Positions 6,753 to 62,377 of a stretch of DNA of 64,000 nucleotides are shown one piece after another. Every line of letters begins with the position of its first letter. The first letter of the stretch is position 1. The notes under the pieces are model-generated. The model had not been told where the DNA came from and searched no databases. It saw only the letters and a program-made list of their open reading frames with translations. This DNA comes from a virus (lineage: Duplodnaviria > Heunggongvirae > Uroviricota > Caudoviricetes), in the IMG/VR virus record IMGVR_UViG_3300031993_000018, positions 89,614-153,613 of that record. One strand, given 5' to 3'. A program made the translations under genes and the position numbers.

Positions 6753-6794
6753 TTGAAGAAAGAGTCAGGAAAACCTGACTCTTTTGTTATTTTT

Positions 6795-24973: not shown

Positions 24974-25580
24974 TTATGAACACTAAAAAAAGAAATGTAT
25001 TCTTTGATTTGTTTTACAAGAAATACAAATCCATTGATAAAATGAACTACATCAAAAATGTTATGGACTCTTGTGAGACAAAAGTACAATTGGATTCAGC
25101 GTATTCATGGGGAATTGAAATCATTTGGAAAACATGTAGTGCAATGAGAGAAATACTTGATAATGAATATGGTAGTATCTTTGCATTTCCTATTGAAGAT
25201 AAAATAATGGATATGTGTAAAGAAATATCAGATGAAATTACCAATCATTATAATAACATACTAAAAAGAAAGATATAAAAGAATGATATGATAGGTATTT
25301 TTATTTTCCCGGCAAAACCAAACAAGGATTACCTGTTCTACAAAGAACCCAGAAAAGTTCTTGAAATGAGTGATGATGAAATCATATCATCAAAAAATTC
25401 ATCAAGGGGTATTTTCTATAACATACATTATGACAATGAATGGGAAGGACTCAGTGATGCAGAAATTGTTGATAAGTGGAATGAAAAAGCGATAAACCTC
25501 CAAATTCAGATTGGTAACAGAAAATCCGGACTTGGTTATACATCAGTAGATAAGACTAAATTTATTAGAATAATAAGGAA

Positions 25581-27111: not shown

Positions 27112-27860
27112 TATGAATACAAGTTTCATTTATAAGGTGATATCTGAATCAGAAAGGTGGCAGGTAAGACGCAAGAGAAAGATCGAGAGGATGAAATTTC
27201 TGATGAAAGTTCTTGAAGACAGAAACCTTAACCTCCCTGAAAGATTTTATGGTATGCTGGCAAGGTGGGAGTCAGAATATAGAAGAGAATGTGAGGAATA
27301 TCAGCAACTACTTAACATAACCAAGAATGAAAAGAAAGAAGAAAGAATACAGTAACATCTGTGATATGAATGGGGAACTCATCCCATATGGTGTCCCTAT
27401 TGACTTCACATGGTGGGCATACTATGGGACAGAAGTTGAACTCCACCTGGTTGCGAAGATACGAAAGCGAAAATCCGGTGACATCTTTGAGTTCATAAAG
27501 GATGAACATGGAAGAGATTGTTTCTTCACTCACAGACTGACATCACTCAATTGGGAACCGGCAGATTTGGAAATATTAAATGAAAATGAGTTATGAACAA
27601 CATCTTTAATTATATCTTTAATTTTGGACCGGTAATTGTCTCCCTCATCCTCCTTATCTGGATGAGATGTTGTTGTGTATTCACAGAGAACATCAAGTTC
27701 CCGACAAGAGGACATATTGTACTGATTACACTGTTGTCAGCAATCCCCATTATAGGAATTATAACAGTGGCGGGTATGATTGCATTCTATATTGGATTCA
27801 GAGTGACAGGTGATTTACGTCTTAAAAGTAATAGATTTACTAAATTTTGGTTTGACATAG

Positions 27861-28388
27861 ATGAATGATTTTAAGAAAATAGTTTTCCTGGATATAGATG
27901 GTGTATTGGCATCCATCCAATTCTTGTGTGATCATCCCAAGTCATCAGGAATTGATCCGGAAAAGTGTAAACTCCTCAACACCCTTTCTGAAATAGGTGC
28001 TGAAATTGTCATATCCTCTTCCTGGGGACACGACAATGGCAGAACTGAAAAGACATTGAGACAATGTGGGTTGACCCTTCCAATCATAGGTTACACCCAA
28101 CATTTTTCCCAGGACTGGATATGTAGGGGTAATGAAATTGAGAAGTGGTTGACAGAGATGTATGGTGGTATGGGTACCAAGTTTGGTTACGATTGCGATA
28201 CGGGTGAACCATACTACAGGGAACACTTTAGTGATAATGATGTTGATTATGAGTATGTTATCTTTGATGATGACACTGATTTCCTGCTTGGACAAAAAGA
28301 CAACTTCATCAAAATAGATGAAAAGACAGGTCTGACAGAAGAGGACATCAACAAAGCAATTAAGATACTTACAAGAAGTGGCGAATAA
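27861..28388 (+). CDS. HAD-superfamily phosphatase (HAD_SAK / polynucleotide-phosphatase-like)
   Basis: Motif I VFLDIDGVL followed by a short ISSSW block, as in the HAD domains of Swiss-army-knife RNA repair proteins and PNKP phosphatases. Confidence 0.5.
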   Translation: MNDFKKIVFLDIDGVLASIQFLCDHPKSSGIDPEKCKLLNTLSEIGAEIVISSSWGHDNGRTEKTLRQCGLTLPIIGYTQHFSQDWICRGNEIEKWLTEMYGGMGTKFGYDCDTGEPYYREHFSDNDVDYEYVIFDDDTDFLLGQKDNFIKIDEKTGLTEEDINKAIKILTRSGE

Positions 28389-34076: not shown

Positions 34077-34481
34077 ATGCTTCCGAGAAACATTGATCTC
34101 ACCGAGAATAGAGACTTTGGTGGTGATGGAGAATTGGATGGACTTGACATATCACTCTGGTGGGATGATGATGAATTGATAACTCCTGCCCAGTGGCACA
34201 ATAGTGTAAGGTTTCAGAGTTTCTTTGGGAAAAGAATCCACAAGAATGAGAAGGATAAAATCTTCACTCATATGGATCTTCCATTTCTCACAGGTGATGA
34301 AGGTAGATGTACCAAGTGTGGTCGCTTATTAGTCCCCTGGAATAGGTTTCACGGATTCTGTATGGGATGTAAAGATGAAATGGAAAAGTTCACACCAAAG
34401 GACATTCCTTGGCGGAACAATGAACTAAGAATAGTTAGAGCTGGTGACAGAGGTCAGGGAGATTTATTCAATTTAAGATGA
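34077..34481 (+). CDS. Hypothetical zinc-ribbon protein
   Basis: RCTKCGRLL...FCMGCK; its stop overlaps the next start as ATGA. Confidence 0.45.
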   Translation: MLPRNIDLTENRDFGGDGELDGLDISLWWDDDELITPAQWHNSVRFQSFFGKRIHKNEKDKIFTHMDLPFLTGDEGRCTKCGRLLVPWNRFHGFCMGCKDEMEKFTPKDIPWRNNELRIVRAGDRGQGDLFNLR

Positions 34482-34654
34482 GTATCTGGGGTGATATGCT
34501 TGACAAAGGTCAGGGAGATATGGAGAGAGGAGAAGACCTTCCACATATCAGAAGTCTTTATCCCTCAGTGTTTGGTAAGAAAAATCCCACAAGAAAGGAT
34601 TTGGAAGACTATAGAGAAATGTGTGAAAACTTAAATAAAATATTTGGACTATGA
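34478..34654 (+). CDS. MSIWGDMLD-leader family member 0 (58 aa)
   Basis: Hand translation gives MSIWGDMLDKGQGDMERGEDLPHIRSLYPSVFGKKNPTRKDLEDYREMCENLNKIFGL. Start and stop both overlap neighbours as ATGA. Confidence 0.5.
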   Translation: MSIWGDMLDKGQGDMERGEDLPHIRSLYPSVFGKKNPTRKDLEDYREMCENLNKIFGL

Positions 34655-34920
34655 GTATCTGGGGTGACATGCTTGACCGGGGAACCGGGGAGAAAATAAA
34701 GAAGGAGGATATCATCCCCTTTCCTAACTTTGATGAACTTTTTTATCCTGATATTACTATTAATCCCAAATCATTTACTGTAGATTATTTAGACCAATTA
34801 AGAGATTTCTCAAAGAAAACATCAGATATAGAAAGTAAACTATCAGATGTGGAAAAGAAACTCAAGGAACTTGGAGTTACAATAAATGATTTTACCAAAT
34901 CATGTAGATTACCATTATGA
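34651..34920 (+). CDS. MSIWGDMLD-leader family member 1
   Basis: MSIWGDMLDRGTGEKIKKEDIIPFP...; unique C-terminus. Confidence 0.6.
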   Translation: MSIWGDMLDRGTGEKIKKEDIIPFPNFDELFYPDITINPKSFTVDYLDQLRDFSKKTSDIESKLSDVEKKLKELGVTINDFTKSCRLPL

Positions 34921-35177
34921 GTGTCTGGGGTGACATGCTTGACAGAGGTAGAGGTATAAGAGAAAAGAAAGAAGATGATTACCTCTCCAAAATGAAAAGT
35001 GCGGGTGTATATAAACCTGTATTTGTACCCTGGTGGAAGAATTTTGACTCTACTGATATTGATATTGATGAAGATGCAATAAAGGAGATGAACAATTTCA
35101 GCTGGGATAAAATGTGGAAGAAACAGAATATCAATGATGAATATTCAAGAGACCTTTTATCCAAACTGTACAAATAA
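34917..35177 (+). CDS. MSIWGDMLD-leader family member 2
   Basis: MSVWGDMLDRGRGIREKKEDDYL...; unique C-terminus. Confidence 0.6.
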   Translation: MSVWGDMLDRGRGIREKKEDDYLSKMKSAGVYKPVFVPWWKNFDSTDIDIDEDAIKEMNNFSWDKMWKKQNINDEYSRDLLSKLYK

Positions 35178-35182
35178 ATCTT

Positions 35183-35500
35183 ATGGGAGTCTGGGGAAAA
35201 ATACTTGACCAAGGTTGTGGTATAAAGATTAAGAAGGAGAATGAATATTTGGAGAATCTGAAAAGGATGATTAGAGATGTCCTATCTTCCCATAAGGTTT
35301 GTCCAGATGGTGACCCACCAATCAAAAATTTCTTTATTGAGGTTGAAGAAGATGGAGGAGTACAAAGATATTCCATTACCCTTGCAGCCTTGGAACACAA
35401 AGATGAATATGGACAAATAACAAGAGATTTTAATAGTCTTGATAATTTGGAAAGCATCCTTAAACTACTTAAAAAAGGAAAAATAATATATGTATTTTAA
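35183..35500 (+). CDS. MSIWGDMLD-leader family member 3 (divergent leader MGVWGKILDQGCGIKIKKENEY)
   Basis: The leader is conserved at both protein and DNA level (atgggagtctggggaaaaatacttgac). Confidence 0.55.
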   Translation: MGVWGKILDQGCGIKIKKENEYLENLKRMIRDVLSSHKVCPDGDPPIKNFFIEVEEDGGVQRYSITLAALEHKDEYGQITRDFNSLDNLESILKLLKKGKIIYVF

Positions 35501-35502
35501 TT

Positions 35503-35916
35503 ATGAGTATCTGGGGTGATATGCTTGACCGGGGAACCGGTGAAAAGATAAAGAAGGAGGATCTCATTGCCGATCCACTGGGGACACTTGAAAAAAGTGT
35601 TATAGTGTATATAGGACCTGTGGACAGAACAGTGTTTCCCACAATGCCGGCGGAAAAAGGACAACTGTACTATGTAAAGGATGAGGTAACCATTGAAGGT
35701 GTAACCTTTCCAGCAGGTTCAGGTATAGTCTATGATGGAACCAAGTGGGTAAATGTAGGTGGTTACACTGTTGAAAGGGTAGATGCCAATATCGATTACC
35801 TTAAACCTGATTCTGGTTTGGAATATATCCCTGAGCCGCCGCGAATTACAATAGCAGCATATGACGATGACGGAGTATATGTACCAAAGTCAATAGGATG
35901 GAAAAATAATTTTTGA
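35503..35916 (+). CDS. MSIWGDMLD-leader family member 4
   Basis: MSIWGDMLDRGTGEKIKKEDLIADP...; 137 aa. Confidence 0.6.
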   Translation: MSIWGDMLDRGTGEKIKKEDLIADPLGTLEKSVIVYIGPVDRTVFPTMPAEKGQLYYVKDEVTIEGVTFPAGSGIVYDGTKWVNVGGYTVERVDANIDYLKPDSGLEYIPEPPRITIAAYDDDGVYVPKSIGWKNNF

Positions 35917-35968: not shown

Positions 35969-37288
35969 ATGAAACTAACATTAGAGAATATTACAATCAA
36001 AGACCACAAGATTTATGACCCGGAAGGAAACTTCAGGGGAGAAATCTTGTATGAGTACATTCGTGGTTCTCATCTGTATTCAACCAATGTGGAGACATCA
36101 GATGAAGACCAGGGAGGTATCTACATTATGCCTAACAGCACCATATTGGGTCTTGGTCTTGACTATCAGAATGAGATAAAGGATAAGAGTAATGACAAGT
36201 GCATCTGGGAGTTGGGAAGATTCCTGGAACTTGCCCTGTCTTCAAACCCAACTGTCCTGGAGGCACTCTTTGTTCCTGGTGATAAGGTCATCTATGAACA
36301 TCCTGTCATCAAGGAGATCCGTTCACACCGTGATGAGTTTATCACCAAGAAGTGTTTTGCACCATTTGGAGGTTATGCTTCAAGTCAGATAAAGAAGGCT
36401 CAGGGTCAGAACAAGAAGATCCACTGGGATATTGCCCAGATGGTAAGGAAGACTCCTATGGACTTCTGTTATACCTTGAAGAACCAGGGTAGTCAGCCTA
36501 TGCAGGACTGGTTGGATGAAAGAGGACTTGATCAGAGAAACTGTGGTCTGGTCAATATTCCCAATATGCCTGATATGTTCGGTGTGTATTATGACTGGGG
36601 TCAGCACATCAGACTTGCCGGTATCACCAAGGAGTATTTCACCAATAAGGAGAATTACTACAAGGATAAGTTTATCAAGACTATGGACATGTATCTTGGA
36701 AATGAATATATCCTCCATGAGGATGGAAACCTTGAGGATGAACTTGAATATATCTGGGATCATCACTCTGAACCTCATGGTGGTTACTGTGGAATCATCT
36801 CACCCAATGAGGATTCCAACACAGTAAGGTTCTCTTCTGTTGTCAAGGGTGAGAAACCCATCTGTTATATGTCTTACAATGCCAATGCATATATATCACA
36901 TTGTAAGGAGTATAGGGAGTATGAGGACTGGAAGGAACACAGAAATCCAGCAAGGTATGAATCCAATATGGAGGGAGAGAAGTCAGGCAATGCAGATATG
37001 AAATATGACTGCAAGAATATGATGCACTGCTTCAGGTTGATGGCAATGGCAAAGGAGATTGCAGAAGGAAAGGGTGTGATCCTGGATCGCGCTGGTATTG
37101 ACAGGGAGTTTCTCCTGGATGTTAGAAACCGTAAGTATGGTTATTCTGAACTCCAGAAGAAGATGCTTGACCTGAAGGATGAGATGGATGCTGCCATTGA
37201 GAAATCTACCATCAAGGATGAGATTGATCCCCAAATGGTCAATGACCTCCTCCTGGAAGCAAGAAAACATTTTAATTCAAAAGATTAA
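35969..37288 (+). CDS. Pol-beta superfamily nucleotidyltransferase (GSHLYST...SDED motif)
   Basis: Near the N-terminus, IRGSHLYSTNVETSDEDQGG fits the GS...(S/T)D.D nucleotidyltransferase active site. The ~440 aa protein probably carries a helical substrate-binding extension. Confidence 0.5.
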   Translation: MKLTLENITIKDHKIYDPEGNFRGEILYEYIRGSHLYSTNVETSDEDQGGIYIMPNSTILGLGLDYQNEIKDKSNDKCIWELGRFLELALSSNPTVLEALFVPGDKVIYEHPVIKEIRSHRDEFITKKCFAPFGGYASSQIKKAQGQNKKIHWDIAQMVRKTPMDFCYTLKNQGSQPMQDWLDERGLDQRNCGLVNIPNMPDMFGVYYDWGQHIRLAGITKEYFTNKENYYKDKFIKTMDMYLGNEYILHEDGNLEDELEYIWDHHSEPHGGYCGIISPNEDSNTVRFSSVVKGEKPICYMSYNANAYISHCKEYREYEDWKEHRNPARYESNMEGEKSGNADMKYDCKNMMHCFRLMAMAKEIAEGKGVILDRAGIDREFLLDVRNRKYGYSELQKKMLDLKDEMDAAIEKSTIKDEIDPQMVNDLLLEARKHFNSKD

Positions 37289-37305
37289 CTTTAAAAAATA
37301 ACACT

Positions 37306-37581
37306 ATGTTTGGAATTATTTTATCATTAGTAGCTGCACTTCTATGTGCAATTTCATGTGGTATTTACATTCTTGAAAAGAAACCGGTGGGTGCCACATT
37401 TTTTGGATTCTTGTCAATTTTAAATCTTGTTTTCTTTTTTCTTAATCTTGTGAACTATAATTCAAATGAAATTGAGAAACATGAGATTGAAAATGTTATA
37501 AAGTATGATGTTGACAGTACCATGACAATATCCGGAAAGGACACTACAAAGACATACACAATTTATTACTACAAATATTAA
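37306..37581 (+). CDS. Small membrane protein
   Basis: Two hydrophobic helices at the N-terminus. Confidence 0.4.
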   Translation: MFGIILSLVAALLCAISCGIYILEKKPVGATFFGFLSILNLVFFFLNLVNYNSNEIEKHEIENVIKYDVDSTMTISGKDTTKTYTIYYYKY

Positions 37582-37585
37582 AATT

Positions 37586-38035
37586 ATGAAACCGGAGAAT
37601 AGGAATACATTGAAGAAAAGTGTGGAAGCTCTCACTACCCTTGGGTTCAAACCTGAAAACATTATGGTAACCGGAAGTATAGCTCTGGATATTGTTGGAG
37701 TACTTCCCCCGAACAGATGGACTCATGACATTGATTTCATCATCAAAATGGATGACAAGTCTTGGCATTGCATGAAACTGCTTGAAGCAATTGAAAAGGC
37801 AGATATGGGTAAGGATAGCAAGTATCCTGATGACAAGAATATGGTCTTCCTGAAGTTAAAGGGTATCAGTACTAACATATGGAGACACACTCCCAACTTT
37901 GACTGGTCAACCATCAAGGATACAGAGACTGGTGTTATGGTGGCAACAGTGTCTCATATTATTCAGGCAAAGAAGGCATATGGTCGCCAAAAGGACTATG
38001 AGGATCTTGCCGCCATTTGCAAATACATTCTTTGA
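37586..38035 (+). CDS. Hypothetical protein, possible minimal nucleotidyltransferase fold
   Basis: VTGSIALDIVGV....THDIDFII resembles the GS...D.D motif of MNT-type nucleotidyltransferases. Weak. Confidence 0.3.
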   Translation: MKPENRNTLKKSVEALTTLGFKPENIMVTGSIALDIVGVLPPNRWTHDIDFIIKMDDKSWHCMKLLEAIEKADMGKDSKYPDDKNMVFLKLKGISTNIWRHTPNFDWSTIKDTETGVMVATVSHIIQAKKAYGRQKDYEDLAAICKYIL

Positions 38036-38266
38036 TAATGATATTCAAGTTCAATGGAGGTAGAGGTGCCATCCTTTGTGACAAATGTGGAATCATCCTC
38101 AAGTCAGGAGATGACATTCCAAAATATGTCTGGGATGCAGTCAGGAAAGGTACTGTAAGTGACCTCCCTGGTATGTGTTGTGATGACAACTGTGAAAGAA
38201 GTAAGAAAATTCTTGGAGACATCTACACAGGTAACACCAAAGATGTAGGACAATAAAATTAAGATT

Positions 38267-39112
38267 ATGTATTTCAAAAACCTAAAAGAAAAGTGCGAAT
38301 ATTACCGTTCGCTTACTGATTATAAACTGATGTCAAACTCTTATGTCCTGGTGATGGTGGATGGTCACTGTTTCAGCAAGATGATCAAGAATAAGTTTGA
38401 CAAACCATTTGATGATGAGTTCATCAATATGATGAATGAGACTGCAAAGTATCTGTGTGAACAGGTACAGGGAGTTAAGTTTGCATACACACAGTCTGAT
38501 GAGATTTCACTTCTCATCACAGACTTTGACACACCAGTAACCGATGCATACTTTAGTTTCAGACTCTGTAAGATGCAGTCACTCATTGCTGCACTGGCAA
38601 CTGCCAAGTTCAACCAGTTATATGCCATCCATAACATTGGTAAGGAAGTGAGTGGTGGCAGCAACAAGATTGAACTTAAGAAGACTATTCCACTCTGTAC
38701 ATTTGACTGTAAGGTATGGACTGTTCCAAATGCAAATGACGCCTATGCCTGGTTCCTCTACAGACAGACTGACTGTATCAAGAACTCAAAGGCACAGACA
38801 GCCCAGACATATCTTCCACACAAACAGTTGGTGGGTCTGACAGCAGATGATATGATTGCCAAACTCAAGGATGAGCAGAACATTGACTGGTATGAGTTTG
38901 TCAATGGTAAGAAGTATGGAAGACTCATCAGGAAAGTGGAGACTCCTATGGAGAAAGACCTTTCCAATGGACTACACATTGAATACATAAGGAATGTATG
39001 GACACCTGTTGAGATAACAGACTTGAGAGAGGATGGGTCACAAGTGAGAGATCTGATTCCTGAACTGTTCAGACCTGGTGTTAATATAAAAGAAGAAATC
39101 ACAGAAGAATGA
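38267..39112 (+). CDS. Thg1-like protein (tRNA-His guanylyltransferase family 3'-5' nucleotidyltransferase)
   Basis: YVLVMVDGHCFSKMIKNKFDKPFDDEFINMMNETAKYL and FAYTQSDEISLLI parallel the Thg1/TLP N-terminal catalytic blocks (R.DGR.FH.F...KP.D....M...A...AYG.SDE.S..L). Confidence 0.65.
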   Translation: MYFKNLKEKCEYYRSLTDYKLMSNSYVLVMVDGHCFSKMIKNKFDKPFDDEFINMMNETAKYLCEQVQGVKFAYTQSDEISLLITDFDTPVTDAYFSFRLCKMQSLIAALATAKFNQLYAIHNIGKEVSGGSNKIELKKTIPLCTFDCKVWTVPNANDAYAWFLYRQTDCIKNSKAQTAQTYLPHKQLVGLTADDMIAKLKDEQNIDWYEFVNGKKYGRLIRKVETPMEKDLSNGLHIEYIRNVWTPVEITDLREDGSQVRDLIPELFRPGVNIKEEITEE

Positions 39113-39489
39113 TTATAGGTATAGATTTTGATGGGACATGTGTAAAGCATGCATATCCCAATATAGGAGATGACATTGGTGCTGTTCCAGTACTCAAGGA
39201 ATTCATAAGACAGGGACACAAACTGGTTCTCATCTCAATGAGGTCCGGGGAACTCCTGGACAATGCCGTACAGTGGTTTAAGGAGAGAGGAATTGAACTC
39301 TATGGAGTAAACCACAATCCTGATCAGGACAGTTGGACTAAGTCACCAAAGATTTATGCACAACTGTATATAGATGATGCCGGACTTGGTTGCCCCACTA
39401 ATTTTGACCAGAGAACCGGAAGACCTTATGTGGATTGGAAAGTAATTGCACAGGCATTCGGTTACAAATATGATGAACTTCCAAAATAA
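39109..39489 (+). CDS. Small HAD-superfamily hydrolase
   Basis: Motif I IGIDFDGTCV (DxDGT); 126 aa. Confidence 0.5.
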   Translation: MIIGIDFDGTCVKHAYPNIGDDIGAVPVLKEFIRQGHKLVLISMRSGELLDNAVQWFKERGIELYGVNHNPDQDSWTKSPKIYAQLYIDDAGLGCPTNFDQRTGRPYVDWKVIAQAFGYKYDELPK

Positions 39490-39499
39490 TATTTGATTT

Positions 39500-40219
39500 A
39501 TGGATACTACCAATACCAATTATTATTATATGATGAGAGATGAGATAGACAGTATTGACAATCCTGAAATCAGGAGGTTTGCCAACACACTGTTGAACAG
39601 AGTCCCCGATTATTTTTTCAAGGTACCCGCATCTTCATCAGGTAAGTATCACCCAAAGAATGACCTGGGTGAGGGTGGATTGGTCAGACACTCCATCAGT
39701 GTAAAGAGAATGCTTGTACATCTCCTTGAACTGGACTGTTATAGTTTCTCTGATGATGAGAAGGATCTCCTGATTGTTGCGGCTCTGTTCCATGACTGTA
39801 TGAAGTCAGGAACACAGGAGGAGTATAAGAAAAACAACAGAACCAAATTCCTCCATCCTGTCCTGGCTGCCAACTTCATTATCACCACATCTGTGATAGA
39901 TGGGTTCAAATATGATTGGGCATTGTATATTGCTGATGCTGTGATTTCACATATGGGTCAGTGGAACACCAACAAGAGTGAGGATGGTGAACTCCCTGTC
40001 CCTGTTAATCCGGCACAAAGAATCCTCCATCTTGCAGACTATCTTGTCTCAAGAAAGGACATCAATATGGTCCTCAGGGAAGATGATGAGATTATTGACA
40101 ATGAAGTAATTGTAACCCAGGATGACAACAAGGATGAACCTGGAGATGTTCCTGAACACAAGGAGAATGGTGAGGACACCAAGACAGCACCAGGAACAAC
40201 TATGGAAATGTCAGACTGA
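39500..40219 (+). CDS. HD-domain phosphohydrolase
   Basis: H...HS...AALFHDCMK contains His-Asp metal ligands, with additional downstream His (ISHMGQW). A bidirectional terminator follows. Confidence 0.6.
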   Translation: MDTTNTNYYYMMRDEIDSIDNPEIRRFANTLLNRVPDYFFKVPASSSGKYHPKNDLGEGGLVRHSISVKRMLVHLLELDCYSFSDDEKDLLIVAALFHDCMKSGTQEEYKKNNRTKFLHPVLAANFIITTSVIDGFKYDWALYIADAVISHMGQWNTNKSEDGELPVPVNPAQRILHLADYLVSRKDINMVLREDDEIIDNEVIVTQDDNKDEPGDVPEHKENGEDTKTAPGTTMEMSD

Positions 40220-42543: not shown

Positions 42544-42607
42544 TTAATAGAAGTACATTTGAAGAAGGTTGTCTGTGAAGATAACCTTTTTTGTTATATT
42601 TACATAT

Positions 42608-44894: not shown

Positions 44895-45197
44895 ATGACA
44901 ACTAAATCATTCAAAGAATTACTCAACAAATCCTTTGAGATAGGATTTAATGATGAGAAAAGAATCATTTGGTTTATCAATGATTGCCCCTGGCTCAATA
45001 TTGAGTGGAAAGAAGGAAATGGGTTTATCTTTGATTATAAAAAGAATACATTTGTTGCTCATATTACCATTGACAGTGTTCCAAGACTTGTGGATGCTCT
45101 AAATCTTTGTGGACTGTCAGTGTTGGCAAAACAGGTAACATATAACTTTATAGACTCCGGTAGATGTCCGGAAATAAAAGAAGACATTGTAAAATGA
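44895..45197 (+). CDS. Hypothetical protein
   Basis: 100 aa ORF. Confidence 0.4.
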   Translation: MTTKSFKELLNKSFEIGFNDEKRIIWFINDCPWLNIEWKEGNGFIFDYKKNTFVAHITIDSVPRLVDALNLCGLSVLAKQVTYNFIDSGRCPEIKEDIVK

Positions 45198-45691
45198 TAA
45201 GAAGAATAGTAGTTGACGGTAATGACGGAACAGGAAAGACTGCAACCATTAACAAGTTGAAGTTCCTATTCCCTGGTATTGAAATACAGGACAGAGGTCT
45301 GTTCTCTGAAGCGACTCTCAATGATGAGTTGTTCAAGGAGTATGAGGAAGAGAGTAAAAGGAGGGAAAATAACCCGAATTTATTTCTAAACTTTGGTATG
45401 AATATTGATAACCAACAGGTGAACAAAAACATCATGAATTTCCTGTTGAGTCTCAGTGAAATCCCAGAATGTGATACACTCTTTATCATATGTGTTGCAG
45501 ACCCGGAGGTATGTCAACAGAGAATTGCTGCCAGAGGTGACTCCATTGAGGAGGAATATCACACAATGGAAGACTTGAAAAAGTTTGACTACCGTTTCAG
45601 AATACTGTGCAGACTTGCCGATTACAAACAGAACATAATGTTGGTTGACACAACAAACAGGACAAACCCGGATACTTGTGATCTGGTATAA
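45194..45691 (+). CDS. P-loop nucleoside/nucleotide kinase (thymidylate-kinase / NRK-uridine-kinase-like)
   Basis: RIVVDGNDGTGKTATINKL (Walker A) followed by IQDRGLF. ATG 45194 is preferred over 45164, which overlaps the upstream gene. Confidence 0.5.
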   Translation: MIRRIVVDGNDGTGKTATINKLKFLFPGIEIQDRGLFSEATLNDELFKEYEEESKRRENNPNLFLNFGMNIDNQQVNKNIMNFLLSLSEIPECDTLFIICVADPEVCQQRIAARGDSIEEEYHTMEDLKKFDYRFRILCRLADYKQNIMLVDTTNRTNPDTCDLV

Positions 45692-45714
45692 AAATAATAT
45701 GTAAAGTTAAAGAT

Positions 45715-45987
45715 ATGGATAAAGCAAAAGAAAAAGCATTGAAGGCATACCCAGATTATGTTGGGTTCAATGACCCTAACACCATAAACCATGTGAGAAA
45801 AGCATATGAAGATGGTTACAATGAAGGTCATAAAGACTCGGCTGTCACCACAGAGGACATAGCCAGGATAAAGGACTTGCTGGACATCGTTCGTGCAGTC
45901 AAGGGTGTTTCAATACCTCAGGACCAGTTCTATGAGGAGGTGTTGAAGAGATACAACAACTGGAAAGAAAACAAATCAAAAAATTGA
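45715..45987 (+). CDS. Hypothetical protein
   Basis: 90 aa ORF. Confidence 0.4.
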   Translation: MDKAKEKALKAYPDYVGFNDPNTINHVRKAYEDGYNEGHKDSAVTTEDIARIKDLLDIVRAVKGVSIPQDQFYEEVLKRYNNWKENKSKN

Positions 45988-45994
45988 AAATAGT

Positions 45995-46477
45995 ATGAAG
46001 GTATTTTTCCCGGGGACTTTTGATCCCTTTACAATTGGTCATGAAGACCTTGTTAAGCGTGCATTGGCAATGGGTTTTGAGGTGGTAATCGGTATTGGCA
46101 TCAATGAGAAGAAGGAACCTCTCTTCACCATAACAGAAAGACTTGATGCCATCCGTAAACATTTTGCTGGTTACACCCGTGTTGGTGTTGTTCAGTATGA
46201 GGGACTCACTGTTGATGCTGCCAGGGCAAATGGTTGCCAGGCAATCCTGAGGGGTGTCCGCTCAGTGGTAGACTTTGAGTATGAGAGAGGTCTGGCAGAC
46301 ATCAATGACAAGATTGACGGTATAGAGACCATCCTACTGGTATCCAAACTTGATCTCCAGTATGTGAGTAGCAGTTTTGTCAGAGAACTCATCCACTTTG
46401 GTCGCAACCCCAAGGATATGGTGATTGACACATTCCAACCGGATGTGGAACTCAAGGCATACTACAATAAGTCATAA
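45995..46477 (+). CDS. coaD: Phosphopantetheine adenylyltransferase (CoaD/PPAT), copy 1
   Basis: FPGTFDPFTIGHEDLV (compare E. coli YPGTFDPITNGHIDIV), ILRGVRSVVDFEYE (LIRGLRAVADFEYE), YVSSSFVRELI (FISSSLVKEV). Confidence 0.8.
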   Translation: MKVFFPGTFDPFTIGHEDLVKRALAMGFEVVIGIGINEKKEPLFTITERLDAIRKHFAGYTRVGVVQYEGLTVDAARANGCQAILRGVRSVVDFEYERGLADINDKIDGIETILLVSKLDLQYVSSSFVRELIHFGRNPKDMVIDTFQPDVELKAYYNKS

Positions 46478-46482
46478 AGTTA

Positions 46483-46895
46483 TGAAAAAGAAAAGATTAT
46501 GGAAGGTCATCAAGACCGGACTCACATACAGCAAGGCATTGAGTATTTTCAAGGCCCAGGCAATTGAGGGAAAGCAGTATGAAGACCTTGCTATCCAGGT
46601 TGGTGACAAGTTCTTTTCACGCAATTCCAATCCGGAACTGGAACAGTACTTCCCATCGGAATTACTCAATGACACATGGGAGGTGTTGGTACCCGACACT
46701 GATGAGGAGGCAAAGTGTGACAAGATCCGTCAGGCAGTCAAGGACTCAAACTGTTCAGGACTCAACTATGCACAGATAGACAATATGACTATCCCTGAAC
46801 TGTTTGAAAGAATTATGTCTGGTCTGAATAATGATCAGATGTATAAAGTTCTCAAAGCATTCTATAATGAAGAGATATACAAAACAAAAAATTAA
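46483..46895 (+). CDS. Hypothetical protein
   Basis: Internal ATG of ORF 46425..46895. Confidence 0.4.
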
Positions 46896-48368: not shown

Positions 48369-48473
48369 CTATAAGTAAAACTTGAAAAAAGACCATCCGA
48401 AAGGGTGGTCTTTTTTTGTTATATTTTTTATAAAATGACATAAATATCTATATAGTGTTTATAAGTTTTTCAA

Positions 48474-48748: not shown

Positions 48749-50719
48749 TTGGCACAGTATATCAAGATAGGAGGTAGATGGAAACAAATCAGGTCTGTCT
48801 ATAAGAAGGTAAACGGTACCTGGATCCCCCAAGAGTATTATAATTTTGATGACAATATCCACTTCTTTAATGCAGCAGAGGTGGATGTTGATGTTTTCAC
48901 TATTGTATCAGAAGACTCTTATACCGGTAAACAGTTCTATCTTGTTGCAAAGTTCAATGGTACAAGAGTGTATCCTACCTGGTCAATCACATCAGGAAAT
49001 GAATATGCCACAGTCAACAGTAATGGTAAGGTGACCATACTTGCCGGAGCCCACAATAACACTATCACAGTTCATGCTTCACTCAATGGTCTGGGAAAGT
49101 CCAAGACCATCACAGTGTCTTACAGCAACCAGTTGTCAATTGAGGGTGCTGACACAATGTCAGGAACATCGGGTAACCTGATTGCCCTTTACAACTCAAC
49201 CATAGTTGTTCCTACCTGGTCAATCACATCAGGAAGTCAGTATGCCGAGATATATCCGACAGGTCAAATCTCCATTATGGATTCAGGACAGATTACAGTA
49301 TCTGCCACATATGATGGGTATACTGCAACCAAGGTCATCACTCTTGTCTATGATGAGAACAGTTCAGCATATACAGATGTTGATCCCGACACCGGTGCAG
49401 TCACAACAACCGAGACTACAACAACAGTTGACCCGGAGACAGGTGCAACAATAGAGACAACAACATCTACAACAACCAACACTGACGGTTCTACATCAGA
49501 GACATCAACAGAGACAACAACAAACACTGATGGTTCTACAACAACCACAGAGACAACTACCAATTCAGATGGTAGCAGCAGTTCATCAACCACATCAGTG
49601 TCTTCAGCAGATTCAGATGGTGCAGTCACAACAGAGACCAGCACCACAACCAATAATGCAGATGGTACATCAACAGAGACCAACTCTACAACAGTTGAGA
49701 ATGAAGACGGATCTTCAACATCAACATCATCCACTGTAAACTATGATGAGAATGGAAATGAGACATCATCATCCTCATCAACAGTGAATGTTTCATCAGC
49801 AGATTCTGACGGTGCGGTTACGACAGAGACCAGCACAACAACAAACAATGCTGACGGTACATCATCAGAAAGTACATCCACACTGGTGGAGAATGAGGAT
49901 GGTTCATCATCATCACAGTCACAAACAGTCAACTATGATGAGAATGGTGACACCACAGGATCTACAACCAATGAGACCAATGTCAATTCTGACGGTTCAT
50001 CACAGAGTTCTACAACAAACTATGATGCATCAGGTGACCCGACAGACACAACCAATGTGGGAACAGACACCACAGGTAATGTGGACACCCAGAACATCGA
50101 GTATGATGAGGAGGGTAACCAGACAGTAACAGGTTATGACATCAACACAGAGGCAAGTGAAGGTGAAGGTAAGGAGATTAGTGGTGATGGAGTCAATACA
50201 GAGTTTGTTCCTTTTGATGACCAGGGTTCAGGATTCATCTGCCACATCAGATTCAAGACTGTTCAGTCAGAACAGCCGAGACCTCCTCTTGTTGAGGACA
50301 TAGATGACAGTGGTACAAACTATCTTTATAATGTAATGTCTGCCAAGTCACCTACAAAGATTGGTAACTACTATCCTGGCTTTGACATAAGATGGGCAAT
50401 CTCCAAGACCAATGCTTCCAGTGGAGTAATCCAGTTCAGGTATGCCCCCGCCAATTCAGGAAACACCCAGACTAACCTCACACCATATGGAGATAATGAG
50501 TATGACATCACAGTGACTTATGATCCCCATAAGTTATACAACAATTACAAGCTCAGGGTCACATCAGCACTGGGAAGTATCCAGACCATTCAGGCAGACA
50601 AGGAGTTTTCCACACTGAATATGGACTTCACAATAGGTTGCGCCCTTTCATCACAAGGTACACCATACAGACATGCCAATGTGACAATATATGAGTTCAC
50701 GATAACCAAGTTACATTAA
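48749..50719 (+). CDS. Tail fibre / receptor-binding adhesin with Big_2 Ig-like domains, Thr/Ser-rich tandem repeats and a C-terminal beta-rich domain
   Basis: Two Big_2-like blocks (ATVNSNGKVTILAGAHNNTITVHASLNGLGKSKTITVSY and AEIYPTGQISIMDSGQITVSATYDGYTATKVITLVY). A ~62-aa unit SSADSDGAVTTETSTTTNNADGTS...VENEDGSS...TVNYDENG is repeated twice, alongside shorter TTNTDGST repeats. Confidence 0.6.
   Translation: MAQYIKIGGRWKQIRSVYKKVNGTWIPQEYYNFDDNIHFFNAAEVDVDVFTIVSEDSYTGKQFYLVAKFNGTRVYPTWSITSGNEYATVNSNGKVTILAGAHNNTITVHASLNGLGKSKTITVSYSNQLSIEGADTMSGTSGNLIALYNSTIVVPTWSITSGSQYAEIYPTGQISIMDSGQITVSATYDGYTATKVITLVYDENSSAYTDVDPDTGAVTTTETTTTVDPETGATIETTTSTTTNTDGSTSETSTETTTNTDGSTTTTETTTNSDGSSSSSTTSVSSADSDGAVTTETSTTTNNADGTSTETNSTTVENEDGSSTSTSSTVNYDENGNETSSSSSTVNVSSADSDGAVTTETSTTTNNADGTSSESTSTLVENEDGSSSSQSQTVNYDENGDTTGSTTNETNVNSDGSSQSSTTNYDASGDPTDTTNVGTDTTGNVDTQNIEYDEEGNQTVTGYDINTEASEGEGKEISGDGVNTEFVPFDDQGSGFICHIRFKTVQSEQPRPPLVEDIDDSGTNYLYNVMSAKSPTKIGNYYPGFDIRWAISKTNASSGVIQFRYAPANSGNTQTNLTPYGDNEYDITVTYDPHKLYNNYKLRVTSALGSIQTIQADKEFSTLNMDFTIGCALSSQGTPYRHANVTIYEFTITKLH
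49598..49965 (+). repeat. Two tandem copies of a ~186-nt unit inside the fibre gene
   Basis: The DNA starting at 49598 (gtgtcttcagcagattcagatggtgcagtcacaacagagaccagcacc...) recurs from 49784 (gtgaatgtttcatcagcagattctgacggtgcggttacgacagagaccagcaca...) with about 85 % identity. Confidence 0.6.
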
Positions 50720-51357: not shown

Positions 51358-52197
51358 ATGGTTATAAATTACACCAACCTTAATGAGAACATCAACATCT
51401 ATTTCAAGGAGATCCGCAACTTCGCATCCCTGACAAGAGAAGATGAGGTAAGACTGTTCTCAAGAATCAAGACAGGTGACAAGTCAGCACAGGCTGAAAT
51501 CTTCAACAGGATGGCCAAGCTGGCGGTCAACATTGCCAAGACATACACAGGTGATGCAGACCTTTTGGAAGATCTCATCCAGGAGGCAAACATTGGTATC
51601 CTTACCGCCATTGACAAGTTTGACCTCAATTCCGGTTTCAGATTTTCATCATATGCCCGTTACTGGATGAAGGCCGCCATTTCCAAGTATCTTGATGAAA
51701 TGGGTGTGGTACGTCACTGCAATCCCCATCTTGTTGACCTGGCCAACAAAATCCGTGAGAAGTTCTACAAGGAGAACCAAAGGGATATCACCAGTGTGGA
51801 ACTGATGGATATGTTGGAGGATGCAGGTGAGGTGGTTGATGACATCAAGTCAATCACCAGCATCACCAATGTGAGGATTGATCTTCCTTATGATTGTGAT
51901 GAGTCCGGAAAGCCAAAGGGCGAATATGGAGACTTCGCAGACCGTACTGCCTGTGACAATGGGTTTGTAGAAAAGGAAAGAGCCGAGGAACTTTCAGAAG
52001 ACATCAGACGAAGACTCTCAAGACTCACTCCGAGGGAGCAGCAGTTGGTCCTGTTGATGTACGGTTTCGTCACCGGAGAAGAAATGGGTTATGACGCTGT
52101 TACAGAAAGGTGGAATGAAGGTAAGCCCGAGAAGGAACAGCTCACACAGGAGAGAGTCCGTCAGATCATCAAGGGTGCACTCAAAAAGATGAAGTAA
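51358..52197 (+). CDS. Sigma-70 family RNA polymerase sigma factor
   Basis: Region 2 LLEDLIQEANIGILTAIDKFDLNSGFRFSSYARYWMKAAI (compare DLIQEGNIGLMKAVDKFD...F.TYA.WWIRQAI); region 4 LTPREQQLVLLMYGF...ERVRQIIKGALKKM. Confidence 0.7.
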   Translation: MVINYTNLNENINIYFKEIRNFASLTREDEVRLFSRIKTGDKSAQAEIFNRMAKLAVNIAKTYTGDADLLEDLIQEANIGILTAIDKFDLNSGFRFSSYARYWMKAAISKYLDEMGVVRHCNPHLVDLANKIREKFYKENQRDITSVELMDMLEDAGEVVDDIKSITSITNVRIDLPYDCDESGKPKGEYGDFADRTACDNGFVEKERAEELSEDIRRRLSRLTPREQQLVLLMYGFVTGEEMGYDAVTERWNEGKPEKEQLTQERVRQIIKGALKKMK

Positions 52198-58457: not shown

Positions 58458-58892
58458 ATGAGTATTTGGGATGATATGCTTGATAAGGGTGTCGGTGAAA
58501 AGGAGGCTCTGGAAGACAGGGCTCAGTTCAGGGATGACATCACTCCTGAAGATTTGAATGAGATGCTCCTTTCCGGAATTGTCCGTTTCCAATACAGAAA
58601 GAAGGCAAAGAAAGGTCAGCCGGAGGACAGTGGTGAGGTCAGGACTGCCTGGGGTACCAGGAAGTCAGAAGTGATCACCAAGATTCCTCACGGTGGTGAA
58701 TGTCCCCCCAAGAAAGTCGGTTATTCTCTCTACTTTGATATGGAGAAATCCGATTGGAGGGTGTTCTGGTCAGGAAGACTGATTGGAGTATGGGACAAAG
58801 TTTACACTGAACCTGAATTCACCAGGCTGTATGCCAAACTGAAGGCAGAAGAGGCCAAGGAGAAAAAGGAAGAGGTGATACCTGAAGAATAA
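58458..58892 (+). CDS. MSIWGDMLD-leader family member 5 (leader fused to the 55501-type domain)
   Basis: MSIWDDMLDKGVGEKEALED..., then a domain homologous to 55501..55755, then a K/E-rich tail. Confidence 0.6.
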   Translation: MSIWDDMLDKGVGEKEALEDRAQFRDDITPEDLNEMLLSGIVRFQYRKKAKKGQPEDSGEVRTAWGTRKSEVITKIPHGGECPPKKVGYSLYFDMEKSDWRVFWSGRLIGVWDKVYTEPEFTRLYAKLKAEEAKEKKEEVIPEE

Positions 58893-59182: not shown

Positions 59183-59271
59183 TCAGGAAAGAGATGAAAA
59201 AATTGACCTCCGGGATGAATTTCCTGGAGGTTTTTTGTTATATTTAATGTGATAATAATAAAGTATTTAGT

Positions 59272-59883
59272 ATGGATAAACTTAGTTATGCATTAGGTGT
59301 CAGCGTTGGTCAGAACCTGATAACACAGTTCGGAATCAAGGATTTGAATTTCGAGGAATTCACAGAGGGATTGAAAGTAATGTTCGGTAAGGTAGAAAAC
59401 AAGATGTCTATTGATGACATCAACAATACCATAAATGAACACATAAAGAAGATCCATGATGAGAAGAAAAAAGAACAGAAGAAGATCAATGAGAATAACC
59501 TGAAGGAAGGAAAGGCATATCTTACAGAGAATGCCGAGAAGGATGATGTTACTACAACCAAGTCAGGACTCCAGATGAAGGTACTTAAGGCAGGACCTGG
59601 ATACATCTCTCCGGGACCACATTCAAGAGTAAGAGTCCACTATGAAGGCAAACTCATTGATGGAACAGTGTTTGATTCATCATACCAGAGAGGTGAACCT
59701 GTTGAGTTTGGCCTGGATCAGGTGATTCCTGGTTGGACAGAAGGTGTACAACTGATGAAGGAGGGAGATGTATTTGAATTCACCATCCCATCTGAATTGG
59801 GTTATGGTGAGGTAGGAGTTCCAGGTCATATTCCTGGTAATAGTGTCCTGATCTTCAAGGTGGAACTTATAAAGATATTGTAA
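59272..59883 (+). CDS. FKBP-type peptidyl-prolyl cis-trans isomerase
   Basis: GLQMKVLKAGPG...VHYEGKLIDGTVFDSSYQRGEPVEFGLDQVIPGWTEGVQLMKEGDVFEFTIPSELGYGEVGVPGHIPGNSVLIFKVELIKI is a canonical FKBP domain. Confidence 0.75.
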   Translation: MDKLSYALGVSVGQNLITQFGIKDLNFEEFTEGLKVMFGKVENKMSIDDINNTINEHIKKIHDEKKKEQKKINENNLKEGKAYLTENAEKDDVTTTKSGLQMKVLKAGPGYISPGPHSRVRVHYEGKLIDGTVFDSSYQRGEPVEFGLDQVIPGWTEGVQLMKEGDVFEFTIPSELGYGEVGVPGHIPGNSVLIFKVELIKIL

Positions 59884-59884
59884 T

Positions 59885-60343
59885 ATGGGAATGACATTAT
59901 TTTATCCAGGGACTTTTGATCCCTTTACAACAGGACATGCCAACATTGTCCAGAGAGCAGTTAATATGGGTTTCAATGTTGTCATAGGTATTGGCAAGAA
60001 TTCGGGCAAGACTCCAATGTTCAGTCCTGAACAGAGACTGGAGGCAATCTCAAGTTATTATGCAGGAAATCCCAATGTGAAGGTTGTGGAATATGACGGT
60101 CTTACTGCGGATGCGGCAGCGAAACTTGCAGACGGTATATTGAGAGGTATCAGGAACGGTACCGACTTTGACTATGAGAACACAATCGCCCATGTGAACA
60201 GACAGGTGAACAGGATAGAGACTGTTTTCCTCCCTGCAATCGAAGGATACTTCTTTGTCAGCAGCACTCTTGTCAAGGAACTGTACAGAAATGGGGAGGA
60301 TGTTTCAAATTATATCATAGACACTTTCAAACCTTATCTGTAA
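59885..60343 (+). CDS. coaD: Phosphopantetheine adenylyltransferase (CoaD/PPAT), copy 2
   Basis: YPGTFDPFTTGHANIV, ILRGIRNGTDFDYE, FVSSTLVKEL. About 55-60 % identical to copy 1. Confidence 0.75.
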   Translation: MGMTLFYPGTFDPFTTGHANIVQRAVNMGFNVVIGIGKNSGKTPMFSPEQRLEAISSYYAGNPNVKVVEYDGLTADAAAKLADGILRGIRNGTDFDYENTIAHVNRQVNRIETVFLPAIEGYFFVSSTLVKELYRNGEDVSNYIIDTFKPYL

Positions 60344-60476
60344 ATGAAACTGGCGGAATATTTACTGACAAAGAATTTTTGTCATATAAGATGTAATCCG
60401 GAAGATGGGTGTTTCTCAAACTGTCCTCATTACAAGATGTTGATAGGTAGATATGGAGATGGGGAAGTTATCAAAT
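60342..60476 (+). CDS. Possible tiny Cys-rich protein (44 aa)
   Basis: Hand translation gives MKLAEYLLTKNFCHIRCNPEDGCFSNCPHYKMLIGRYGDGEVIK; the ATG overlaps the coaD2 stop (TAAATG). Confidence 0.25.
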
Positions 60477-60856
60477 AATGTTGAGGTGGATTATAGAGTC
60501 CCCCATATATTACTGTGGAGGTTGTACACCGGAGGAGGTTACCTGTGCGGGATGTGCCATAATGAAGATCCTGAAGGCAATGTTTCTGGACATATTCCAG
60601 GAAACAGTGTCCTGATTCTCAAGTTACAATTGTCCAATTTTGTCCGATTCCCATTGCAAATCACTCATCACCAGATGTTTAGATCAATTCCCAATAATGA
60701 GTGGTTGTCTGATAATCGGACAAAGTATCCGGACATAAATCAAGTCAGTGTGTCTAAATTCTCAATACCAAAATGAGTATTTAGACACATTTTTCTTGCG
60801 GTGACGGACTGCGAAAAGAAAATATTGAAAATATTTTCAAAAAAGTTCCCAAAATA

Positions 60857-61693: not shown

Positions 61694-62377
61694 ATGAAGA
61701 ATATAGAAGACATAAACACCAAATATCCAAGGACATATCATCTGCCTTGGTCACCCGGAGCCACTTCTGATGACAAGAAGTTGTCCTCAGACTGGTTTGA
61801 TGCAGATGAATGGAAAGGAAAGGAGATTGTGATCACTGAGAAGCTTGACGGTGAGAACACCGCCTTCTGGAATGGTGATGTCTTCAGCAGAAGTCACTCG
61901 GTTCCCACCAGGTCACCCTGGTCAAGAAACCTTTGGGACAAAGATGGACTCCTGTGGGTGATAAAAGACAAGATCTCCCCGGAAGAGATTGTCTATGGTG
62001 AGAACCTTTATGGTGAACACAGCATACACTATGACAGACTTCCGGCGTATTTCTTCGCCTTCGCCTGCCGCAGGGAAAATCAGTGGTGGAGTTGGGATGA
62101 TGTTGTTCTGATGGCGGATATTCTGAATGTACCGACAGTTCCTGTCCTGTGGAGAGGAAGGTTGGAGTCAGAGTCTGAACTGAAGGAGATGATCTCCAGG
62201 TTTATGTCCCAACCATCGGCATTCGGTGATACAAAGGAAGGAGTGGTGATAAGAAAGGTCGAAGGATTTGACAACAAGGACTTCTCCAAGAATGTCGCCA
62301 AGTATGTGAGGGAAAATCATGTCCAGACTGACCAACACTGGACAAAGAACTGGAAAAGAGCAAAGTTAATAGTTTGA
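61694..62377 (+). CDS. ATP-dependent RNA ligase-like nucleotidyltransferase
   Basis: N-terminal KYPRTYHL, motif I KLDGEN, motif IV EGVVIRK, plus downstream Lys residues. Confidence 0.55.
   Translation: MKNIEDINTKYPRTYHLPWSPGATSDDKKLSSDWFDADEWKGKEIVITEKLDGENTAFWNGDVFSRSHSVPTRSPWSRNLWDKDGLLWVIKDKISPEEIVYGENLYGEHSIHYDRLPAYFFAFACRRENQWWSWDDVVLMADILNVPTVPVLWRGRLESESELKEMISRFMSQPSAFGDTKEGVVIRKVEGFDNKDFSKNVAKYVRENHVQTDQHWTKNWKRAKLIV

Follow-up and report, generated by a model that had tools for sequence, protein, structure and literature searches.

Why a phage should encode phosphopantetheine adenylyltransferase (PPAT, CoaD), the enzyme of the penultimate step of coenzyme A (CoA) synthesis, and why it should do so twice, is the question raised by a 64-kb stretch of viral DNA, positions 89,614 to 153,613 of IMG/VR record IMGVR_UViG_3300031993_000018. 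This whole stretch of 64,000 nucleotides is referred to below as the window. One of its two PPAT genes, here termed PPAT1, lies close to a gene for a small P-loop kinase; the second, PPAT2, lies elsewhere in the window. An earlier reading of the sequence (the original prediction) proposed that the phage either boosts CoA supply or has let one paralogue shift to another substrate, with the kinase and the adenylyltransferase following the paired logic of known cofactor pathways. The analysis presented here favours the first of these: PPAT1 and PPAT2 are probably two functional, host-derived CoaDs that serve as auxiliary genes for the supply of dephospho-CoA and CoA, and a kinase that is probably from another pathway shares the predicted transcription unit of one of them.

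Identity and layout of the two adenylyltransferases

Both sequences scored well above the cut-off of the coaD equivalog model TIGR01510 (103.3 bits), PPAT1 with 139.5 bits (E = 8.5e-41) and PPAT2 with 137.1 bits (E = 4.8e-40), and every PDB sequence match obtained with PPAT1 was a PPAT (34/34; best E = 3.7e-27). The (T/H)xGH N-terminal and ISxT-type C-terminal nucleotidyltransferase motifs are present in both proteins, as FPGTFDPFTIGH (GTFDPFTIGH) and VSSSFVRE in PPAT1 and as YPGTFDPFTTGH (GTFDPFTTGH) and VSSTLVKE in PPAT2. Models for nicotinamide mononucleotide (NMN) adenylyltransferases (NMNATs), namely NadD (TIGR00482), NadM (TIGR01527) and NadR (TIGR01526), returned 17-27 bits for the two PPATs against cut-offs of 112-187 bits. 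For PPAT1 the values were 19.3 against 112.45 (NadD) and 26.8 against 181.2 (NadM), and for PPAT2 20.7 and 20.6 bits, respectively. By contrast, the true NMNAT of lineage L107 scored 109.8 bits with NadD and 32 bits with coaD.

Residue conservation was assessed in an alignment of 224 Bacteroidota CoaD homologues together with E. coli CoaD (checked against PDB 1B6T). At columns conserved in at least 90% of sequences, PPAT1 and PPAT2 retain the consensus or a conservative change, the sole exception being R107D in PPAT1. The conserved substrate-binding residues of PPATs (P8-T10, H18, K42, L73, L74, R88, R91, D95, Y98, E99, N106, S129 and S130; PMC3764209) are all kept in both proteins, position 130 being Thr in PPAT2. 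The pantetheine contacts are P8, G9, A37, L73, L74 and N106 (PMC3764209); both copies have Gly at 37 and Thr at 74, the same as in chromosomal CoaD of Bacteroidaceae. Pairwise dN/dS was 0.12 for PPAT1 against lineages L007-L010 and 0.12 for PPAT2 against L002, a level of purifying selection common to both copies. The CoaD assignment thus holds for each of them by equivalog score and binding residues, and by the PDB matches. As far as sequence can tell, there is no sign of an altered substrate in either protein, and the suggested substrate shift of one paralogue is not borne out: R107D apart, no conserved or binding residue has been lost, and the NMNAT scores lie far below their cut-offs.

The predicted open reading frames (ORFs) were all found on the + strand, within the following arrangement (window coordinates).

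715, 2628, 4763, 9992, 42591, 48416, 58398 and 59235, + strand: copies of the 10-mer TTGTTATATT, from a motif scan
19393-20459, + strand: 171-aa protein and PnuC (nicotinamide-riboside transporter), the usual mini-kinase neighbours in related phages
42591-42600, + strand: promoter-like TTGTTATATT, heading a gene string of ~5.8 kb that holds the kinase and PPAT1; the next + copy is at 48416
44895-45197, + strand: 100-aa ORF, its stop overlapped by the kinase start
45194-45691, + strand: mini P-loop kinase, 165 aa, Tmk/dNK type, phage-specific family
45715-45987, + strand: 90-aa ORF between kinase and PPAT1
45995-46477, + strand: PPAT1 (CoaD), 160 aa, TIGR01510, the copy nearer to host CoaD
46482-46895, + strand: 137-aa ORF directly 3' of PPAT1
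48383-48418, + strand: strong terminator-like hairpin (16 pairs and a T-run), closing the kinase/PPAT1 string
59205-59244, + strand: terminator-like hairpin (59205-59232) followed by TTGTTATATT (59235-59244), setting FKBP-PPAT2 apart as a unit of its own
59272-59883, + strand: FKBP peptidyl-prolyl isomerase, FklB/FkpA type, 203 aa (PF00254, 108 bits; PF01346, 73 bits)
59885-60343, + strand: PPAT2 (CoaD), 152 aa, TIGR01510, the more diverged second copy
60582-60623, + strand: degenerate 42-nt direct repeat of the FKBP 3' end (81% identity with 59818-59859)

The kinase had been described as lying immediately upstream of PPAT1; the 90-aa ORF intervenes. This ORF had no match in Pfam, NCBIfam or PHROG, and in close relatives (L007-L010, PPAT1 96% identical to that of the window) its place is taken by ORFs of 30 aa and 66 aa in L007 and L009 and of 90 aa in L008 and L010. 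Given this variability, the spacer ORF is unlikely to belong to an enzyme pair. The 137-aa ORF past PPAT1, likewise without a Pfam or PHROG match, has a 138-aa counterpart starting 4 nt past PPAT1 in L007-L010.

TTGTTATATT occurs eight times on the + strand, where chance would give 0.66 for both strands together. Those at 48416, 58398 and 59235 directly follow a terminator hairpin, several stand 25-60 nt before a start codon, and the 10-mer probably serves the phage as a promoter element. The gene for a phage sigma-70-like factor lies at 51358-52197. The kinase/PPAT1 string also holds genes for a Dam methylase, YodL, an SLT lysozyme-like protein and a Band_7 protein. With terminators and TTGTTATATT placed in this way, PPAT1 and PPAT2 fall into separate predicted transcription units. 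A scan for sigma-70 promoters, which does not cover Bacteroidetes-type promoters, gave 11 hits against 12.9 expected in one region and 15 against 9.5 (sd 3.2) in another.

PPAT2 starts 1 nt past the FKBP stop, and the FKBP-PPAT2 pair is retained in L001-L003. The FKBP 3' end (59818-59859) and its repeat (60582-60623) flank PPAT2 on both sides; the downstream copy encodes a peptide remnant, GHIPGNSVLILKLQL, within an ORF at 60453-60776 that is also conserved in L002. The repeat is probably the scar of a recombination that inserted PPAT2.

Host origin and viral relatives

The window comes from a large phage whose hosts are Prevotella-type Bacteroidaceae of the rumen. The 64 kb hold ~137 ORFs, nearly all on the + strand, with 93% of the DNA coding, a GC content of 36-43% and one tRNA-Ser, and they are phage-like in their one-strand architecture of small genes, their PHROG matches and their gene sets common to Lak and other phage contigs. 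A search of the phage collection for near-identical DNA gave no match to the window; an identical PPAT2 (P0121) is borne by a ~153-kb contig from sample 3300028887.

The two copies are 48% identical (72/149 residues), less than the 55-60% first estimated. The best non-phage relatives of PPAT1 are chromosomal CoaDs in Bacteroidaceae metagenome-assembled genomes (MAGs), with 64-68% identity; PPAT2 is ~55% identical to the same set, and each copy is nearer to bacterial CoaDs than to the other. In the two Bacteroidaceae relatives checked, coaD lies in a chromosomal parE/gyrB-like - coaD - S41-peptidase arrangement, and the host source among Bacteroidales suggested earlier is thereby supported. A search of genome contigs with PPAT1 had returned relatives of at most 55% identity (Proteiniphilum, Muribaculaceae) and missed the Bacteroidaceae homologues. 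No remnant of parE or of the S41 peptidase was found around either PPAT, similarity to bacterial loci ends at the ORF borders, and the GC content at third codon positions of both genes is within the phage's own range. Given that similarity is confined to the ORFs and that composition matches the phage, the captures are not recent. Thus, of the outcome that the original prediction had set against neofunctionalisation, namely canonical enzymes recently taken from the host, the canonical-looking, host-derived sequences were found and the recent capture was not.

In a neighbour-joining tree of 148 columns, PPAT1 nests among Bacteroidaceae sequences and PPAT2 branches with P0027, which has a phage-like gene context, and P0169. 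The phage PPAT1 and PPAT2 clades were exclusive sisters in 0/200 bootstraps, which argues against duplication within the phage; tandem duplication, also at odds with the nearness of each copy to bacterial CoaDs, was not preferred. Judged by these comparisons, two separate acquisitions from the Bacteroidales CoaD pool, with only the ORFs retained, would be the most likely history. Both genes have stayed with their neighbours in diverged relatives, at 87-93% amino acid identity for PPAT2 and 96% for PPAT1. Each combines a position within the Bacteroidales CoaD radiation with a phage context and a dN/dS of 0.12, as looked for in auxiliary genes.

PPAT homologues recur in other phages. Within the phage collection, every one of the 15 Lak megaphages of Prevotella has one, as do Caulobacter, Brevundimonas, Campylobacter and Microcystis phages; some further records look like bacterial contamination. 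Peptide patterns drawn from PPAT1 only proved too specific and retrieved no viral relatives, so that an alignment-based pattern was needed; one such degenerate pattern retrieved 58 PPAT loci from IMG/VR, representing 45 lineages at 85% identity and mostly on contigs of 200-550 kb. All viral PPATs tested (8/8) scored above the coaD cut-off. Their commonest neighbour is dephospho-CoA kinase (DPCK), which passes TIGR00152 and is paired with or fused to PPAT in ~10/45 lineages. It is a separate gene no more than ~1.5 kb downstream in six lineages, directly so in L057, L065-L067, L052 and L059; in L042 it lies 4.5 kb away. In three lineages (L023/24, L027 and L028) the two enzymes form a single chain.

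L023:9986-11119: PPAT-DPCK fusion
L027:4966-6066: PPAT-DPCK fusion
L028:9941-11035: PPAT-DPCK fusion

Both fusions tested (L023 and L028) exceed the coaD and the coaE equivalog cut-offs, and the arrangement is comparable to eukaryotic bifunctional CoA synthase (COASY). Given this adjacency and fusion across lineages, the final pair of reactions in CoA synthesis is a module that viruses carry repeatedly. An RNA-ligase-like gene stands near PPAT in 4 viral lineages. No second PPAT copy was found within 10 kb at any viral locus with a PPAT ORF (0/57), which makes the double dose of the window unusual. A literature search found no paper on phage PPAT function or on phage PPAT-DPCK; coaD and coaE have been listed as viral auxiliary genes (PMC11097641, PMC8093824). 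With PPAT in 58 IMG/VR loci and several named phages, and with DPCK coupled to it so often, the earlier remark that a phage has no obvious need of this step can hardly be maintained.

The mini-kinase and its gene neighbourhoods

The kinase start was placed at 45194 rather than 45164, because homologues start at MIRRIVVDG. The predicted P-loop is real (DGNDGTGKT) and is accompanied by an invariant D33-R34-G35 after strand 2 and by an Arg-rich LID, CQxRIxxRGDSxEEEYH. Profile matches to the Tmk/dNK group were weak and borderline: the protein fell below the curated Tmk/dNK cut-offs except for a borderline score with Pfam PF02223 (Tmk models PF02223 and TIGR00041), and it matched PHROG 761, "thymidylate kinase", at E = 2e-8. 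Its best structural matches were Tmk and dNK; the closest fold was not CoaE, and no family match was obtained with CoaE (PF01121, TIGR00152), PanK or AAA_28 (PF13521). D33 aligns with a Glu of deoxycytidine kinase that we take to be the catalytic, hydroxyl-activating residue of that enzyme. The family is a small one: a search of 1.8 billion proteins yielded 113 representatives at E ≤ 1e-3, the majority of them 125-145 aa long. By sequence criteria, the protein is a phage-specific minimal Tmk/dNK-like kinase.

Members of this family occur in two main contexts. In ~15 gut and rumen phage lineages the kinase is the last gene of a module that starts with a 171-aa protein and PnuC and often includes a secreted, DUF5020-like protein of ~200 aa.

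L013:5592-8441: 171-aa protein-PnuC(-DUF5020-like)-kinase module
L014:3242-5940: the same type of module
L099:4202-6402: the same type of module
L100:4343-6420: the same type of module
L101:6001-7433: the same type of module

Pnu transporters are facilitators and usually have as a gene neighbour the kinase responsible for trapping their substrate (PMC5749112). Given this habit, the simplest reading of the module is that its kinase traps an imported nucleoside-like compound, and by analogy the window kinase is probably a trapping kinase of the same kind. The window PnuC (19905-20459) scored 109 bits with PF04973 and passed the nicotinamide riboside (NR) transporter equivalog TIGR01528 (51 against 42.45 bits); here the kinase lies 25 kb from its PnuC module, near PPAT1 instead. 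For the 171-aa partner of PnuC, a PDB profile search gave a chance match only and a single-sequence model was unusable (predicted local distance difference test score of 33); it may resemble nucleoside 2-deoxyribosyltransferases. In three lineages (L107, L099 and L101/L118) an NMNAT of the NadD or NadM type is encoded at most 8 kb from the kinase. At L101:8557-12247, on a rumen phage contig from sample 3300028887, the PnuC-kinase module adjoins a NadM-type NMNAT and two TIR-domain proteins, one of which has a Macro domain, so that NAD-consuming and NAD-making genes stand side by side.

In ~20 more distant lineages the kinase adjoins, or is fused with, HisG-like, Ham1-like and SAICAR-synthetase-like proteins. 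A module of this type at L035:7129-11359 (also in L031-L033, L063, L149 and L154-L168) encodes a HisG-like phosphoribosyltransferase, the kinase, a Ham1-like NTP pyrophosphatase and a SAICAR-synthetase-like protein; the kinase is often fused to one of the other three, as in P0252, P0259, P0276, P0279, P0269 and P0282, and in Lak megaphages the cluster also includes a PPAT. No paper on a HisG/kinase/SAICAR cluster was found in the literature, and no homologue of the HisG-like, Ham1-like or SAICAR-synthetase-like proteins was found in the window. On human-gut contigs of 200-480 kb (L123-L150) the kinase homologues are truncated to 67-78 aa under table 11 and their neighbourhoods went unscored; these Lak-like megaphages may use a recoded stop codon.

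The order kinase then PPAT is shared by the window, all 15 Lak genomes and related IMG/VR contigs, the last of which carry a full cluster of HisG-like, kinase, Ham1, PPAT and SAICAR-synthetase-like genes. Identity of the Lak PPAT does not exceed 44% with the Bacteroidota set and is 38% with PPAT1; since this enzyme belongs to a different lineage, the adjacency involves non-orthologous PPATs. No Lak genome was among the 30 records matched by a canonical CoaE query, and none gave a PnuC or NadM-NMNAT match. Of ~46 kinase lineages whose context was long enough, only the window and two Lak sublineages have a true PPAT no more than 8 kb from the kinase; conversely, the kinase is near PPAT in 1 of 45 viral PPAT lineages (Lak) besides that of the window. 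In the related locus L014 a bona fide DPCK and a mini-kinase occur in one cluster. An RNA-ligase-like gene 59% identical between Lak and the window points to a shared, shuffled pool of accessory genes. The neighbourhood of kinase and PPAT1 may be a regional linkage shared with Lak phages rather than a demonstrated enzyme pair. Of the kinase-adenylyltransferase logic that had been proposed, the recurrence of the gene order (15/15 Lak genomes) stands; the likeness to CoaE or NadR does not, and the kinase is mostly found beside PnuC or HisG/Ham1/SAICAR-synthetase-like genes.

Several other gene groups of the window were noted. Genes of the RNA-end-repair type are dense at 24248-28388, 35969-40219 and 61694-62377 and comprise two RNA-ligase-like genes (25581-26258 and 61694-62377), R2K and TupA-like ATP-grasp proteins, a HAD_SAK_2 phosphatase, a 439-aa nucleotidyltransferase, a Thg1-like protein and an HD-domain protein. 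Host-like metabolic or defence-related genes at 2662-3792, 4789-5889, 6753-7388, 10860-11429 and 23042-23647 include GMP reductase (393.6 bits, just below its 397-bit cut-off), an M42 aminopeptidase, a NUDIX hydrolase, thymidine kinase and a GmrSD_N-like protein. Five tandem paralogous small genes at 34478-35916 all start with MS(I/V)WGDMLD(R/K)G; a sixth lies at 58458-58892, its homologue carries the WYL_2 domain PF10902, and related copies occur in L002 and L014. Finally, a 656-aa protein (48749-50719), encoded 3' of a terminator and the promoter-like motif, contains extended Thr/Ser/Asn-rich repeats (TTETSTTTNNADGTS), matched no family and could be a fibre or surface protein.

Candidate explanations and known systems

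If both enzymes act as their sequences suggest, PPAT1 and PPAT2 would convert ATP and 4'-phosphopantetheine to dephospho-CoA and pyrophosphate. PPAT is a feedback-controlled step of bacterial CoA synthesis, as in E. coli CoaD. Extra phage enzyme would for that reason be expected to draw the 4'-phosphopantetheine of the infected cell towards dephospho-CoA and CoA, with host CoaE, or a phage DPCK like that of a related phage, completing the pathway. Several points weigh against this account. Catalysis by phage PPATs is read from sequence, and at position 107, where 92% of the relatives have Arg, PPAT1 has Asp. Neither DPCK nor any other CoA-pathway gene was found in the 64-kb window, and the retention of two copies is not accounted for by CoA supply. 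Given the 148 columns of the tree, two acquisitions are favoured rather than proven. Lastly, the Lak order of kinase then non-orthologous PPAT hints at a functional link.

Such a link is the core of the proposal that kinase and adjoining CoaD-type enzyme form a working pair, in which a nucleoside-like precursor, either imported or made by the phage, would be phosphorylated and then adenylylated to NAD+ or to a new dinucleotide cofactor or signal; we consider this improbable. In its NAD version, which appears quite unlikely, the kinase would convert NR to NMN and PPAT1, by promiscuity or a subtle shift, would serve as NMN adenylyltransferase and so rebuild NAD+ from a PnuC-imported precursor. 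Consistent with this are the NR-transporter score of the window PnuC, the recurrent PnuC-kinase modules and the habit of Pnu transporters to lie with a trapping kinase (PMC5749112), as well as the NMNATs near the kinase in L107, L099 and L101/L118, a place that a CoaD-type enzyme takes in the window and in Lak. In L002, moreover, AAA_28 and NADAR genes occur just past the point that matches the right end of the window; within the window itself no CoaE-like, AAA_28, NADAR or NadM-NMNAT homologue was found. PPAT1, however, scores 139.5 bits with coaD and 19-27 with NMNAT models, the reverse of the L107 enzyme; it is 64-68% identical to chromosomal CoaD, keeps P8, G9, L73 and N106 and is host-like at positions 37 and 74. 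Nor can the NR logic be transferred to Lak, given that no PnuC or NadM-NMNAT match was obtained there. Alternatively, the mini-kinase could be a non-orthologous analogue of DPCK or a pantetheine kinase, forming with PPAT1 a compact pair for CoA salvage. The frequency of adjacent or fused PPAT-DPCK among viruses fits such a pair, as does the combination in Lak of kinase and PPAT with no Lak genome among the 30 records of the CoaE query; the match of D33 to the hydroxyl-activating Glu of deoxycytidine kinase fits a hydroxyl group, not a phosphate, as acceptor. That the kinase matches none of CoaE, PanK and AAA_28, that L014 holds it together with a bona fide DPCK, that its main partners and fusions do not indicate CoA and that PPAT is within 8 kb in only three of ~46 lineages make this proposal decidedly doubtful.

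Two further readings are very unlikely in our judgement. Dephospho-CoA might be made for a purpose other than CoA, such as a non-canonical 5' cap or an initiating nucleotide for RNA. The window has no DPCK and does encode two RNA ligases, a Thg1-like protein, HAD_SAK_2, two ATP-grasp proteins and a nucleotidyltransferase, and RNA-ligase-like genes recur near viral PPATs; these are matters of gene context, set against a PPAT-DPCK coupling in many phages that indicates CoA as the end product, and host CoaE would presumably convert the dephospho-CoA anyway. The other is that one or both PPATs are functionless passengers from the host, as the many host-like genes of the window (GMP reductase, M42 peptidase, FKBP) and the insertion scar at PPAT2 might suggest. 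Against it stand the dN/dS of 0.12 for both copies, their intact reading frames and motifs, their composition drifted to that of the phage and their conservation with neighbours (87-93% for PPAT2 and 96% for PPAT1). On balance, two functional CoaDs acting in dephospho-CoA and CoA supply, with the kinase as a fellow traveller of PPAT1, remain the favoured interpretation.

If both enzymes are ordinary PPATs, they are a documented addition to viral auxiliary metabolic genes. The last steps of CoA synthesis emerge as a recurrent target of large phages, with PPAT in at least 45 viral lineages and often coupled or fused to DPCK; this recurrence and coupling suggest that CoA, or else the pool of 4'-phosphopantetheine, is limiting during infection. 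Since each of the two host-derived paralogues has a predicted transcription unit of its own, the double dose lends itself to a comparison of how they fare under phage selection. What may in the end outweigh the original finding are the phage-specific mini-kinase tied to PnuC uptake modules and the separate HisG/Ham1/SAICAR-synthetase-like module; the PPAT-DPCK fusions, too, may merit attention in their own right.

Compared with bacterial CoaD (TIGR01510; E. coli CoaD, PDB 1B6T), the window PPATs share the single domain of ~155 aa, the TFDPxTxGH and SS[ST] motifs, the binding residues, the equivalog score and 64-68% (PPAT1) or ~55% (PPAT2) identity to Bacteroidaceae MAGs. Unlike it, they are phage-encoded, lack the parE-coaD-S41 context and form two paralogues 48% identical, and PPAT1 has a 9-residue C-terminal extension in addition to R107D. 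With known phage coaD genes (Microcystis phage PhiMa05 ORF34, the coaD/coaE of snow viruses and those of Lak, Caulobacter, Brevundimonas and Campylobacter phages) they have in common a CoaD-family gene in a large phage genome, from which the window differs by its two copies with conserved neighbours of their own, the mini-kinase for PPAT1 and FKBP for PPAT2. The PPAT-DPCK pairs and fusions of jumbo phages likewise place an adenylyltransferase beside a P-loop kinase; in the window, by contrast, DPCK is absent and the kinase is not CoaE-like, lies upstream rather than downstream of PPAT and is separated from it by an ORF.

For the kinase itself, the P-loop and the Arg-rich, RxxxRG-type LID are those of the Tmk/dNK superfamily, whereas the mini-kinases are only 125-165 aa long, are without most of the substrate-binding core and are found fused to HisG-like, SAICAR-synthetase-like, Ham1-like or methyltransferase domains. 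Salvage of NR by PnuC with NadR-type enzymes, and the NMNAT/Nudix sets of T4-like phages, share with the window the presence of PnuC, a small kinase and a HIGH-motif adenylyltransferase in one genome, and relatives of the window carry true NMNATs near the same kinase family. In the window, by contrast, every sequence test identifies the adenylyltransferase as CoaD-type, the kinase falls outside the AAA_28/NadR type and PnuC is 25 kb away from it.

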